Positions 21,174 to 24,939 of a DNA stretch of 32,000 nt are shown here, in pieces. The notes beneath the pieces were generated by a model that worked only from the letters and a program-made list of their open reading frames with translations, did no database searches and was not told where the DNA came from. Position numbers and translations under genes: made by a program. Within the stretch, counting starts at the first letter, position 1. The number at the start of each line of letters is the position of its first letter. Source of the stretch: Paenibacillus tyrfis (GTDB lineage Bacteria > Bacillota > Bacilli > Paenibacillales > NBRC-103111); assembly GCF_024158745.1 (NCBI RefSeq), contig NZ_JAMZAW010000016.1:148191-180190 (forward strand), given 5' to 3'.

Positions 21174-21179
21174 GAATAT

Positions 21180-21208
21180 AGTATGGCACCTAACTAATTT
21201 TGTGTCAA
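21180..21208 (-). promoter_or_regulatory. Probable marR promoter with an embedded operator 2. The geometry suggests a leaderless mRNA.
   Basis: On the minus strand: TTGACA (21208-21203), a 17-nt spacer, then CATACT (21185-21180). Only 6 nt separate the -10 from ATG 21173, and there is no SD. The 9-mer ACCTAACTA (21188-21196) sits in the spacer. Confidence 0.4.
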
Positions 21209-21335
21209 GAAATTTTTTCTTGCTCGTCGAGCTTGAATCCGGGGATACCGCGCATTAAAATAAAATCGGTTTGCAGCTTGCAGTTCGGCAAGGTTATTGC
21301 ACGCCATCATCACATGCAATACATTTAGAGGAACT

Positions 21336-21635
21336 ATGGGACTGGATATTATCCTATACGATGACAAAGGCGCCAAGGCAGGATTCATTGAAATTCCGAG
21401 CAGTTTACACGAAGCTATATTCATGGGTGGGCCGCATTGGAGCAGTTATCCCTATTTAAGAAAAATCAAGGATTACTACAAGACGAATATCCGGTTTCAT
21501 CAACCCGATCTGCACCATTTTGTCGGAGATTTGAAACAAATCAGATTGTTTATAGATTACAGGCATCATGCAGCGTTGGACTGTTTAATCGATGCCTTGA
21601 GCCAAAGCCAAGCGATCCATGTGGCCGGCGATTAA
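21336..21635 (+). CDS. Hypothetical 99-aa protein in the low-GC islet.
   Basis: MGLDIILYDDKGAKAGFIEIPSSLHEAIFMGG... I preferred the internal ATG 21336, preceded by AGAGGAA, over the track start 21297. I recognised no motif. Confidence 0.45.
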   Translation: MGLDIILYDDKGAKAGFIEIPSSLHEAIFMGGPHWSSYPYLRKIKDYYKTNIRFHQPDLHHFVGDLKQIRLFIDYRHHAALDCLIDALSQSQAIHVAGD

Positions 21636-21677
21636 ACGTGAGCCAGACGCATTGTAGTAGAATAGTTAGGATCACGT

Positions 21678-22391
21678 TCAATTTAGCCGCGCTTTTCGGA
21701 ATAGATTCGATTTCATTTTTTTATCCGGTGTACCCTCTCCCGGAGCCACGAAACAATTCAGGCCATCAGACGTTACTGCCTTTTTGTCAATGGCAAGCTC
21801 TAGTATGGAATAAGCTCTAATTTCAAGCAATTTACGAATATCCCCGGAATCTAAGATCACCCCTGAATCTATTTTTTTACGAAAAGAACAAGCCAGGTAC
21901 TCCTTTTCAAATACTTTGCTTGTCAATACAGACTTGGCTTTTTCCAGTTGCGAATCTGTCAAAAAATCCGATTTTACCGCTTGTATAATAATGCTTTCGA
22001 TACCCAGCGACCTAGAATCGATGAATTCTTGAATCATTTCATCAAAAAGCTTTGCGTCAATGCTGTCGCCACTTTTCGAGACTTTCCCACTAAAGTATCG
22101 CCATACGAGATGCTCTTGTACTGCCGGAGCGACGGCCAATCTTTTTCTAAAAGAATAAATCATGCTTAAGGCCTCCTCCGAAAGCAAACTGTGCAACTCC
22201 AATTGTTGCCCCAATTCAAGTTGAGTTATCAGAAGTTCAAGACTCTTTATCATCTCTTCTTCCGAATAACAACAGTCTCTCGCCAACTCGTTAATTGCCT
22301 TGGCTGCATCAGACAAATCGAACCACTTCCCGTTGTAATTTCCGCCTCTTTTGCCGAAAGCTATCCTCTTTGATCTATTATACTCCAGCAA
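21678..22391 (-). CDS. Hypothetical 237-aa protein, predicted mostly helical, with no recognised domain.
   Basis: The frame is open from TTG 22391, which lies 2 nt after the upstream stop. The first ATG is at 22253. Low GC. It is co-directional with the 80-aa gene. Confidence 0.6.
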   Translation of the reverse strand: MLEYNRSKRIAFGKRGGNYNGKWFDLSDAAKAINELARDCCYSEEEMIKSLELLITQLELGQQLELHSLLSEEALSMIYSFRKRLAVAPAVQEHLVWRYFSGKVSKSGDSIDAKLFDEMIQEFIDSRSLGIESIIIQAVKSDFLTDSQLEKAKSVLTSKVFEKEYLACSFRKKIDSGVILDSGDIRKLLEIRAYSILELAIDKKAVTSDGLNCFVAPGEGTPDKKMKSNLFRKARLN

Positions 22392-22393
22392 AT

Positions 22394-22636
22394 CTAATGA
22401 TACTTACTATCTTGCCTAGCTTGCTCAAGGTTGACATGGAGCAATTCGACCCGGAAATCCATCTCCATCTGGTGAATGAGCGTAAGGATATCTTCCATCG
22501 TCAACATATGCAACGTTTTTCCACGCTGACGAACAATACTTTTGAGTGTGAAAATAACTTCTTGGCACGTTTGAATCTGCAACAGTAACTTAGCTTCTTC
22601 ACCTAACAAGATCTTATGCTTGGCTGCATCTTCCAT
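22394..22636 (-). CDS. Hypothetical 80-aa protein, first gene of the islet operon.
   Basis: I moved the start to ATG 22636 (GGGAGGG lies 6 nt upstream). Sequence MEDAAKHKILLGEEAKLLLQIQTCQEV... I recognised no motif. Confidence 0.6.
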   Translation of the reverse strand: MEDAAKHKILLGEEAKLLLQIQTCQEVIFTLKSIVRQRGKTLHMLTMEDILTLIHQMEMDFRVELLHVNLEQARQDSKYH

Positions 22637-22677
22637 ATTTGTCCCTCCCACCAATGTTTTGATACTTTTATGAGTCT

Positions 22678-22691
22678 TACTCTTAAGAGTA
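22678..22691. promoter_or_regulatory. Perfect 14-bp palindrome. Candidate operator for the XRE repressor.
   Basis: TACTCTTAAGAGTA lies immediately downstream of the -10 of the islet operon promoter, at about +2 to +15. Confidence 0.5.
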
Positions 22692-22698
22692 TGTAAAT

Positions 22699-22727
22699 AT
22701 TATATTACCTTTAAGCGTAAGTTTCAA
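22699..22727 (-). promoter_or_regulatory. Near-consensus sigmaA promoter of the 80-aa/237-aa operon.
   Basis: On the minus strand: TTGAAA (22727-22722), a 17-nt spacer, then TATAAT (22704-22699). Confidence 0.65.
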
Positions 22728-22808
22728 TGATATCTTTTGATTCTTATGCTATAGTAATTTGTGAGTTATACTGTTAAACGTAGCTTCTCTTTAGTGGAGG
22801 AATACCAT

Positions 22809-23036
22809 ATGAAAATTAAAATCCGATTGAAGGAACTGTTAGAGGAAAGAGGAATTAGCCAGCGGCAGCTCTCACTGAGAATGAATATGCGCCCCGCAAC
22901 CATCAACCATCTCTGTTCTAATTCCGTAGACAGAGTCTACATTCGCACATTAGAGCAAATTTGCGAAGCCTTGGATATTACCGTCGACCAACTTATTGTC
23001 TCGGTAAACGAGAAAGAAGACGTGGCCGATAAATAA
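22809..23036 (+). CDS. Small XRE/Cro-C1-type HTH transcriptional regulator (75 aa).
   Basis: MKIKIRLKELLEERGISQRQLSLRMNMRPATINHLCSN matches the HTH_3/HTH_26 pattern. I moved the start to ATG 22809 (GGAGGA SD). Confidence 0.85.
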   Translation: MKIKIRLKELLEERGISQRQLSLRMNMRPATINHLCSNSVDRVYIRTLEQICEALDITVDQLIVSVNEKEDVADK

Positions 23037-23332
23037 CATGCCTGCGAAGCCTTCTATATACATCTATTTTCCGTGCATCCTATCTTGGCGGTGTTCTTAG
23101 GTATACAAAAAAAGCCCTTCCTCCCCCAACATCTGATTTTCCCCCGCTTCCTACCATCAATGAGCAGCTTATAGCGCACACGGTTTCTTTCTGTATGAAT
23201 CGTATCACCCACAACTGACGCCGATTATAGTAAAATGGAGATGGCATTTTCACTCCGGTATACATAAGAAGTGTGTTGCCGCATACAAACCGATCAAGGA
23301 TTGCATTTTGACAGATTGAAGGGATAAGAAAA

Positions 23333-24541
23333 ATGAAACACATGTTAGGCAAATTGCTCAACAATTACTGGAGCCCCTATGCCGCGATGGGAATTGCAGG
23401 TATTCTGAGCGCACTCTACTTCGGAATTACCGGAACCGTGTGGGCTGTAACCGGTGAATTCACTCGTTTGGGAGGTCACGTTTTGCAGCTTTTCGGCGTG
23501 GATATTTCCGATTGGGCCTATTACGGCTTGATTCATATGGATGGAACGACCTTCAGCAGAACAGACGGCTGGATCGTGTGGGGCATGTTCATTGGCGCCT
23601 TGATTATGATTTTGCTCAGCAATAATTTTAAGGTAAGAGTTCCGAAGCAAAAGCGCCGCTTGCTGCAAGGGCTGATTGGCGGATTCATCGCGGGTGTTGG
23701 CGCCCGTTTGGCTCTAGGCTGCAATCTGGCTGCCCTTTTTACCGGCGTGCCTCAGTTTTCATTTCATGCTTGGATATTTATGATCGCCACCGCAATCGGC
23801 ACTTACGCGGGCGTTAAAATCGTCAATACAAGATGGTGGAAAGGCAAGCCTGTCCTGCAAAAGGGCAATATGGCCCAAAGCGCTGCCAAGGCCAGAAAAA
23901 TTCAACCCATTGCAGGGACCGTCGTTGCATTGTTATATACAGGTCTTATCGTTTACTTTTTTATCTCGGGCCGCACGATGTTGGGCGTAGCTGCTCTATT
24001 CGGGGCCGCATTCGGCATTTTGATTGAAAGAGGGCAAATTTGCTTTACATCTGCGTTCCGTGATCTATGGATCAGCGGGCGGGCCACCATGACAAAAGCA
24101 ATCACGGTCGGCATGGCTTTTAGTTCCGTGGCGACACTGCTAATCATTCTGATTTACGGCTTAGACCCCATTACCAAGATCGCCGCACCAAGCACATTTA
24201 TCGGCGGCGTATTGTTCGGCATCGGCATCGTACTGGCTGGCGGCTGCGAGACAGGCATGATGTACCGGCTGATGGAAGGACAAATCGTGTTCTTGCCCGT
24301 ATTTATCGGCAACATTATCGGGGCCACGGCCCTCGCCTACGCTTGGGATCATCTTGGTGTCTACAACGTTCTCGTACAAAGCGGCGCCAAAATCAATCTG
24401 CTCACGATCATGGGGCCGACTGGCGCGCTGCTGGTGACATTGATCTTGCTGGGCATCGGATATGCCGTAGCCGCATACTGGCAAAAAAACTACCGCTTCG
24501 GCGTTGGATTCAAGAAAGGGGACTATAAAAATGTCGGTTGA
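23333..24541 (+). CDS. yeeE: YeeE/YedE-family sulfur-compound (thiosulfate) transporter.
   Basis: Two repeated halves with conserved Cys motifs (LALGCNLAALFTG; LAGGCETGMMYR). It is paired with a TusA-like gene. Confidence 0.85.
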   Translation: MKHMLGKLLNNYWSPYAAMGIAGILSALYFGITGTVWAVTGEFTRLGGHVLQLFGVDISDWAYYGLIHMDGTTFSRTDGWIVWGMFIGALIMILLSNNFKVRVPKQKRRLLQGLIGGFIAGVGARLALGCNLAALFTGVPQFSFHAWIFMIATAIGTYAGVKIVNTRWWKGKPVLQKGNMAQSAAKARKIQPIAGTVVALLYTGLIVYFFISGRTMLGVAALFGAAFGILIERGQICFTSAFRDLWISGRATMTKAITVGMAFSSVATLLIILIYGLDPITKIAAPSTFIGGVLFGIGIVLAGGCETGMMYRLMEGQIVFLPVFIGNIIGATALAYAWDHLGVYNVLVQSGAKINLLTIMGPTGALLVTLILLGIGYAVAAYWQKNYRFGVGFKKGDYKNVG

Positions 24542-24764
24542 AGTTGATTTCACGTTGGATCTTAGAGGGGAATCTTGTCCATACCCTGTTATTTATACAC
24601 TGGAAACATTACGGGACATGAAGAAGGGGCAGCTGCTTCATGTGATTGTCGACTGTCCGGCGGCTTTCCGCAACGTCCCGGAAGAAGTCGTCAAGCACGG
24701 CTATACGCTCGCACAGGAACCAGTCAAAAACGGGCAGGATTTAAACTTTTATATTCAGGCCTAA
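24531..24764 (+). CDS. yeeD: TusA/SirA/YeeD-family sulfurtransferase.
   Basis: LDLRGESCPYPV (CPxP active site). I moved the start to ATG 24531 (AAAGGGGA SD), which overlaps the end of yeeE by 11 nt. Confidence 0.85.
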   Translation: MSVEVDFTLDLRGESCPYPVIYTLETLRDMKKGQLLHVIVDCPAAFRNVPEEVVKHGYTLAQEPVKNGQDLNFYIQA

Positions 24765-24773
24765 ATAAACCAG

Positions 24774-24812
24774 AGGATTAGGCGCGAAAAATTCGCGGCC
24801 TAATCCTTTTTC
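24774..24812 (+). terminator. Intrinsic terminator of yeeE-yeeD.
   Basis: AGGATTAGGCGCG pairs with CGCGGCCTAATCCT, followed by T5. Confidence 0.75.
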
Positions 24813-24888
24813 TTATTGCGGCTTCGGCTATTCTATCAGCAATTTAGGCGTTGGTACGACATTTGAGGCGTCATTTCCAAGCCAACAC

Positions 24889-24930
24889 AAAAAAAGGCCC
24901 AAGCTGCGCTTTCCTAAGCGCACTTGGACC
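24889..24930 (-). terminator. Intrinsic terminator of the GGDEF-EAL/ThDP/CMD cluster.
   Basis: On the minus strand GGTCCAAGTGCGC pairs with GCGCAGCTTGGGCC, followed by a U-run (forward-strand A-run at 24889-24895). Confidence 0.7.
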
Positions 24931-24939
24931 GTTAGCATT

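Follow-up and report, generated by a model that had tools for sequence, protein, structure and literature searches.

The 32-kb window, that is, the whole stretch of Paenibacillus tyrfis DNA analyzed here, contains an islet of low guanine-plus-cytosine (GC) content between marR and yeeE. The reading that we favor, with better than even confidence, is that this islet would be an orphan RHS-toxin immunity gene of a new family, parked beside a separate, conserved switch with an XRE-type helix-turn-helix (HTH) regulator. An initial annotation, made from the sequence alone, had described the same DNA as an XRE repressor divergent from a tightly coupled operon for an 80-amino-acid (aa) and a 237-aa protein, and had suggested a toxin-antitoxin (TA), abortive-infection or other compact defense module. 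The features on which the argument turns, including open reading frames (ORFs) and ratios of nonsynonymous to synonymous substitution rates (dN/dS), are as follows.

21174..23332, no strand: low-GC islet between marR and yeeE.
21257..22392, no strand: presence/absence segment of 1,136 bp, missing from P. elgii L004 and L005, that holds a 99-aa ORF and the 212-aa gene.
21678..22316, minus strand: 212-aa orphan immunity-like gene, from the NCBI call and homologue alignment; the ORF is open up to TTG 22391, which gives the 237 aa of the initial annotation.
22317..22393, minus strand: spacer of 77 nt from the 80-aa stop to the likely 212-aa start, with a lone TATAAT and the Shine-Dalgarno-like GGGAAGTGG.
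22394..22636, minus strand: 80-aa gene with a GGGAGGG ribosome-binding site; predicted two-helix hairpin, dN/dS 0.04-0.11.
22809..23036, plus strand: XRE/HTH_26 regulator of 75 aa, from Pfam; dN/dS 0.07-0.12.

The family of the larger protein was revealed by an index-free HMMER search and not by word-indexed searching. HMMER yielded 84 representatives of about 215 aa each at E<=1e-3, including 65 at E<=1e-10; the family occurs mainly in Paenibacillus and comprises at least 84 sequence clusters. Word-indexed searches with the 237-aa and 80-aa queries returned P. tyrfis and P. elgii proteins only, and a word-indexed search with a 53-sequence profile of the family returned 5 proteins only. A KEHxxWxY motif, LES, and P..GE..KK.K..LY.KA are conserved among the members.

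The family also informs the gene model. All of the remote homologues (84/84) align from query residue 24 onwards only, and the NCBI product of the larger gene is 212 aa. On these two grounds, TTG 22316, with GGGAAGTGG ahead of the start codon, is the likely start, which would place the gene 77 nt, rather than the initially annotated 2 nt, after the 80-aa stop codon. The 75-nt N-terminal extension is open and conserved in a second P. tyrfis strain, and it may still belong to the larger gene.

Gene neighborhoods provided the evidence for an immunity role. Thirteen neighborhoods of the 212-aa family were examined, the window included; one locus set was taken from a hand-picked subset sharing AKEHI[TVS]WxY and amounted to 3 loci only. 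In 5/13 neighborhoods, a family member lies 5-28 nt downstream of, or overlaps by 4 nt, a co-oriented RHS gene or gene fragment. These loci are listed below.

L007: member 18 nt past an RHS/YD-shell protein of 1,655 aa; Imm64 comes another 416 nt downstream.
L013 (Paenibacillus sp. FJAT-26967): member 22 nt after a frameshifted RHS gene.
L017 (P. vulneris): member 28 nt after a 333-aa orphan RHS C-terminal fragment.
L009 (short metagenome contig): member 5 nt after a gene cut by the contig end, with the same tip.
L010 (short metagenome contig): member overlapping by 4 nt a gene cut by the contig end, with the same tip.

A C-terminal domain of ~215 aa is common to all five upstream products. 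The four long tips share 44-62% mutual identity and the invariant motifs GYIEH...DHxxxHVHV...RVGxNGxP; the short L010 fragment is 51% identical to L007. The tip domain is followed directly by a family member in 5/5 occurrences, and the family members diverge faster than the tips (28-36% vs 44-62% identity). DUF4160 (PF13711) is the only Pfam match common to the tips tested (4/4) and the best match for 3/4, with scores of 12.3-21.5 bits where the cut-off is 23. Searching PDB sequences with a profile of the toxin tip gave no match. The DhiTA TA pair of Dickeya dadantii has DUF4160 as its toxin (PMC8198452), and a role of DUF4160 as an effector domain in Menshen has been deduced from domain architectures and neighboring genes (PMC12065111). 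Polymorphic toxin loci encode the cognate immunity protein immediately behind the toxic tip (PMC3150448). Since its members directly follow mutually homologous RHS tips, the 212-aa family is probably, by guilt by association, a family of cognate immunity proteins of RHS toxins.

The same neighborhoods could instead mean that the family is an RHS accessory factor, such as a chaperone, adaptor, or stabilizer, or a housekeeping alpha-solenoid that RHS genes happen to adjoin. Most copies are indeed solitary, beside metabolic or regulatory genes, alpha-solenoids are generic protein binders, and L007 carries a second, known immunity family (Imm64) further downstream. We consider this explanation quite improbable. 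The partner tracks the C-terminal tip, even when the tip is an orphan fragment (L017), whereas an adaptor for secretion is usually encoded upstream and goes with the N-terminal delivery domain. The faster divergence of the family than of the tip also argues against an accessory role, as does the position directly after a toxic tip, which is that of the cognate immunity gene. The Imm64 gene 416 nt further on in L007 is as expected of an orphan array.

The AlphaFold2 (AF2) model of the 212-aa protein is an all-helical solenoid of 14 helices, with a predicted local distance difference test score (pLDDT) of 97.1 and a predicted template modeling score (pTM) of 0.90. A Foldseek search with this model returned repeat proteins of the ARM/HEAT/Sel1 type, none of them significant; at rank 14 of these matches was PA5088, an immunity protein of P. 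aeruginosa. A Pfam family was found in 0/53 family members, a profile search of PDB sequences with the family gave no match, and tblastn of the 212-aa protein on plasmids gave none either. None of the immunity families described in Pfam (Imm, SUKH, and others) was matched, and the 212-aa family would be new.

A tblastn search for the toxin tip in the window at E<=10 gave nothing, and it is the unrelated 80-aa gene that precedes the 212-aa gene. The window copy is regarded as an orphan because the window has no toxin tip. A toxin-gene remnant was sought upstream of the 212-aa gene and none was found; the comparison of 'EYNRSKR' with the 'RYNNSDKY' toxin tails was too weak to use. Orphan immunity genes are an established phenomenon (PMC10539506, PMC12247911, PMC3150448). 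In P. tritici (L012, 5977-6945), a 101-aa ORF begins 10 nt behind a solitary family member and passes the threshold of the Colicin_Pyocin immunity family PF01320 (22.6 vs 21.2 bits), and the two form a small orphan-immunity array.

Two of the RHS loci carry further observations of their own. In P. vulneris (L017, 4971-6645), the RHS fragment consists of the core end motif and the same toxin tip, followed by the immunity gene; a full-length RHS shell was not found within 5 kb upstream. In L013 (6849-11369), the immunity gene is followed by a 199-aa ORF, a 307-aa ORF with a weak Phage_CRI replication-protein match, an XRE homologue, and an IS110-like fragment. Past this fragment and a masked stretch, there is an orphan RHS C-terminal module (236 aa, with another tip) overlapping a 153-aa putative immunity gene.

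As judged from related loci, the islet is a mosaic of two modules, 21257-22392 and 22394-23036. In the other P. tyrfis loci (L001-L003), marR and yeeE likewise enclose these four genes. Two P. elgii loci (L004 and L005) lack exactly 21257-22392, a piece whose ends are one base past the stop codon of the 80-aa gene and 83 bp upstream of marR; they keep the XRE gene and an intact 80-aa gene. P. elgii L006 has a different deletion, 21606-22471, which shortens the 80-aa product to 71 aa and spares part of the 99-aa ORF. Most simply, the absences in P. elgii would be independent deletions, because the 99-aa remnant of L006 shows that the segment was once present in that lineage. The deletion junctions have 1-4 nt of microhomology without a target-site duplication. 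At the borders of 21257-22392, neither a target-site duplication nor terminal repeats were seen, with 1 nt of microhomology only, and no integrase, att-like repeat, or tRNA target was found there. The 212-aa gene has a dN/dS of 0.40; the other values are 0.04-0.11 (80-aa gene), 0.07-0.12 (XRE), and 0.10-0.11 (yeeE). By these measures, the XRE/80-aa pair, a separate and lineage-restricted module, is under strong purifying selection.

This distribution bears directly on the proposal that the XRE, 80-aa, and 237-aa genes are one compact TA, abortive-infection, or anti-phage module with the small and large proteins as a pair. Such a module would agree with the tandem genes on one strand behind a strong, probably repressed promoter, and with the low-GC, strain-variable DNA. 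In every variant seen, the large gene stands behind an intact 80-aa gene and never without it, and losing the large gene while keeping the small one is what an antitoxin allows. We nevertheless hold the proposal to be very improbable. In P. elgii, the 80-aa gene persists under strong purifying selection together with XRE and without the large gene, and the supposedly coupled operon is thus not one evolutionary unit. An 80-aa homologue was found in 0/12 of the other neighborhoods of the 212-aa family; the initial annotation had itself named such a lack of co-occurrence beforehand as evidence against the pair. The family of the large protein is linked to RHS toxin genes, and the likely gap between the two genes is 77 nt, not 2. 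Neither protein has a match in PADLOC, Pfam, or NCBIfam, and in PADLOC only XRE is matched, by generic HTH models. The flanks (marR, an NmrA-like gene, yeeE/tusA, and CMD and TPP enzymes) are not a defense island. The variation among relatives that the initial annotation had proposed to look for does exist, in the form of the missing 21257-22392 of L004 and L005 and the other deletion of L006. Its idea of horizontally acquired-looking defense DNA agrees with the composition, the strain variability, and a role in biological conflict; the anti-phage part is not supported, and the family is instead tied to RHS toxins.

The second module is the XRE/80-aa pair. The XRE protein passes the gathering scores of HTH_26 (54.3 bits, cut-off 22) and HTH_3 (38.8 bits, cut-off 23) over residues 6-64, as expected from the initial annotation. 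The 80-aa protein is modeled as a two-helix hairpin with moderate confidence (pLDDT 74). Among 5.8 billion proteins, it forms 3 clusters, all within the P. elgii/tyrfis/oleatilyticus clade; relatives in structure or sequence were not found beyond this clade, and tblastn on phages gave no match. Spo0E-like, WXG100-like, and SinI-like assignments of the 80-aa protein were considered and dropped, as no motif or family match supported them. The control elements between the two genes are as follows.

22699..22727, minus strand: 80-aa promoter TTGAAA-17-TATAAT, 11/12 matches; invariant in 4/5 related loci, TATAGT in L006.
22727..22755, plus strand: weak XRE promoter-like site ATGATA-17-TATAGT with TG, back to back with the 80-aa promoter.
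22663..22782, no strand: operator-like cluster of four TACnnTTAAnnGTA sites, at 22663-76, 22678-91, 22706-19, and 22769-82.

The near-perfect sigmaA promoter and the perfect palindrome of the initial annotation were both recovered, the latter as the 14-bp TACTCTTAAGAGTA at 22678-22691, just downstream of the -10 element. When the 32-kb window was searched for the palindrome with <=3 mismatches, four related sites (TACnnTTAAnnGTA) were obtained, all within 22663-22782; the chance expectation in the window is 0.35, and 0/100 shuffles reached four. The site at 22706-19 fills the spacer of the 80-aa promoter, two sites lie just downstream of its -10 element, and 22769-82 lies at the XRE promoter. 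Five loci show 95% conservation over the 172 bp between the two genes, compared with an XRE dS of 0.28-0.37 substitutions per site, and both hexamers of the 80-aa promoter are unchanged in 4/5 loci. This layout suggests a repressor-operated divergent switch with XRE as the putative binding protein, although for the regulatory details as a whole we see the chances as about even. A repressor guarding a strong promoter is a plausible part of the initial annotation; its joint drive of a coupled pair is not retained. A 14-nt direct repeat, ATGTTTTGATACTT and ATCTTTTGATTCTT, is also present at 22654-22667 and 22732-22745, 78 nt apart, and brackets the 80-aa promoter.

Under the favored reading, the two modules would work as follows. 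The 212-aa protein would bind and neutralize a DUF4160-like RHS tip delivered by a competitor, and P. tyrfis would be protected though the toxin is not carried at the window locus. The protection would be interbacterial rather than anti-phage. The XRE repressor would bind the four TACnnTTAAnnGTA sites, which extend over the spacer of the 80-aa promoter, the first stretch transcribed from it, and the promoter of XRE itself. The switch would control the 80-aa helical-hairpin protein and, probably through read-through, the immunity gene. Read-through into the immunity gene is plausible because no intrinsic terminator was predicted between the 80-aa and 212-aa genes. A stronger version holds that the islet is a regulated, acquired interbacterial-defense cassette, in which the XRE switch expresses, on a signal, the orphan immunity protein together with the 80-aa hairpin protein as a small protective or anti-repressor factor; we regard this version as rather improbable.

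The relatives of the XRE gene raise another explanation. XRE homologues with 74% (L013) and 61% (L007) identity lie 2-3 kb from the immunity genes of RHS loci; the best phage and plasmid relatives have 34-45% identity, and those of phages at most 35%. In L013, the similarity is limited to the coding sequence, which is surrounded by a Rep-like 307-aa ORF and an IS110-like fragment. A common type of source locus for the XRE and immunity genes is hinted at, in a small sample (2/3 RHS loci with enough flank). The islet could be the decayed remnant of a small integrated mobile element or of an RHS-locus tail, in which XRE is a CI-like repressor, the 80-aa gene the first early gene, and the immunity gene and 99-aa ORF cargo, and which is no longer a working system. 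Besides the XRE homologues, which adjoin the Rep-like 307-aa ORF, the IS110-like fragment, or an HTH_36 protein, the several independent deletions and rearrangements in the marR-CMD interval, the IS200/IS605 elements nearby, and the plasmid-borne 99-aa homologues would agree with a remnant. Across the P. elgii/tyrfis clade, XRE and the 80-aa gene are strongly constrained together with the DNA that controls them, which points rather to a current function, and the segment borders have no integrase, att-like repeat, tRNA target, or target-site duplication. We consider a decayed remnant unlikely; it overlaps the orphan-immunity reading rather than excluding it.

Several points weigh against the orphan-immunity reading. 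The immunity role is assigned by guilt by association, and the link of the tips to DUF4160 falls below the Pfam threshold (12-21.5 vs 23 bits). Solitary copies beside ordinary metabolic or regulatory or unrelated genes make up 8/13 neighborhoods (window included), and this high orphan fraction would also fit a family with another role. The dN/dS of 0.40 may fit a window copy that is decaying rather than functional. The lone TATAAT in the 77-nt spacer may tell against the presumed transcriptional linkage of the 80-aa and 212-aa genes, and the reading assigns no role to the 80-aa protein.

The remaining gene of the 1,136-bp segment is the 99-aa ORF.

21336..21635, plus strand: 99-aa ORF, convergent with the 212-aa gene; from the ORF list, with plasmid homologues.

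This ORF is kept in P. tyrfis (87% protein identity, with a 3-codon indel) and is absent from the proteins called for the window's genome. Nine Priestia megaterium plasmids carry homologues of it with 44% identity. Two of these plasmids were examined (L015 and L016, 7001-7884); in both, a gene for a 185-aa hypothetical protein begins 20 nt behind the homologue. This conserved pair is part of arrays of small DUF genes (DUF4304, DUF5412, and DUF3885), and an NB-ARC protein adjoins in one plasmid. The literature on DUF3885, DUF4304, and DUF5412 was uninformative for the 99-aa ORF. Where the 212-aa and 99-aa genes converge, a hairpin of modest strength (z = -2.3) lies between them and lacks a U-tract.

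The descriptive part of the initial annotation was reproduced. Recounting of three 60-base lines gave GC values identical to the hand counts (14/60, 23/60, and 36/60), and the sharp GC drop between marR and yeeE was evident over the islet as a whole, which has 41.2% GC vs 57.7% in the left flank and 56.5% in the right flank and is the lowest-GC stretch of the window. All four small ORFs are present at the coordinates given. The view that the 99-, 80-, and 237-aa proteins have no recognizable domain also stands: searches of Pfam, NCBIfam, PADLOC, and PHROGs with these proteins gave no significant match (none at E<0.001 for the 80-aa and the 212/237-aa proteins), and XRE alone was matched.

Further observations concern the surroundings of the islet, whose neighbors are marR, the NmrA-like gene, yeeE/tusA, and the CMD and TPP enzymes. 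A promoter-like TTGACA-17-CATACT with TG lies at 21180-21208 (minus strand) upstream of marR, in the part of the islet common to P. elgii; marR probably has its own promoter irrespective of the presence of the 1,136-bp segment. The yeeE-tusA segment (window 23039-24937) has an intermediate GC fraction of 0.47-0.52. P. elgii L006 lacks this segment, and XRE abuts the CMD gene there (L006 5361-5601). P. tyrfis L001 has additional genes between CMD and tusA (L001 5144-7382) and an 82-bp duplicate of the XRE 3' end (L001 6488-6569). The entire marR-to-CMD interval looks like a rearrangement hot spot. IS200/IS605-type elements (Y1 transposase and OrfB/TnpB) occur a few kb past marR, at differing positions (L001 13902-15360 and L004 10296-11405).

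If the favored reading is true, the islet reveals a new, unannotated immunity family of ~215 aa, partnered with a DUF4160-like toxic tip on RHS proteins. To our knowledge, DUF4160 has so far been a TA toxin and a predicted Menshen effector only. The window would also provide a Gram-positive orphan immunity gene that lies outside toxin loci and has been lost by independent deletions in sister strains, and it would bear on the resistance of soil bacteria to the contact-dependent or secreted toxins of rivals. The XRE/80-aa switch is a small, clean, lineage-specific regulatory unit. The cassette version, if true, would establish both a new toxin-immunity family pair and an orphan immunity gene under inducible control. 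Current ideas are not overturned by these results; a plausible but wrong reading of the islet as a new defense operon is corrected.

The islet shares traits with several known systems. With type II TA and compact anti-phage modules, it shares small tandem genes in low-GC, variable DNA with an adjoining HTH regulator. It differs in that the 80-aa and 212-aa genes do not co-occur elsewhere, no known TA or defense family is matched, and the regulator is divergent rather than within the operon. With the CI/Cro switches of phages and integrative and conjugative elements (ICEs), it shares a small XRE HTH gene divergent from a strong promoter, with the promoters back to back and several related palindromic sites overlapping both. 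Unlike in those switches, the divergent product is a predicted helical hairpin and not an HTH protein, no phage or element genes follow, and the XRE/80-aa pair is fixed at one chromosomal locus in one clade.

DhiTA (PMC8198452) resembles the partner RHS tips of the 212-aa family, whose best consistent Pfam match is DUF4160 with the motif DHxxPHVHV. Unlike in DhiTA, the tips score below the threshold (12-21.5 vs 23 bits), an RHS delivery shell carries the toxin domain as a fusion, the window itself has no toxin, and the putative neutralizing partner is a 215-aa alpha-solenoid instead of DUF2442.

Rhs/YD-repeat toxin-immunity pairs and their orphans were compared through the Serratia Rhs NADase immunity proteins (PMC10539506), the orphan rhs-CT/rhsI modules (PMC3150448), and the orphan immunity genes of Bacteroidales (PMC12247911). 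Unlike described Rhs immunity proteins, the 212-aa family has no Pfam or other annotation, and its tip is only DUF4160-like. Unlike described Rhs orphans, the window copy, known here from sequence alone, lies outside a toxin locus or a recombinase-associated immunity island and behind a repressor-controlled promoter shared with an unrelated 80-aa gene. Like the members of Rhs pairs, the 212-aa family stands directly after a variable RHS tip, in the same orientation and with tight spacing, and diverges faster than the toxin tip. Like those pairs and their orphans, it also occurs in an orphan tip-plus-immunity module (L017) and as solitary copies, sometimes beside other immunity genes.

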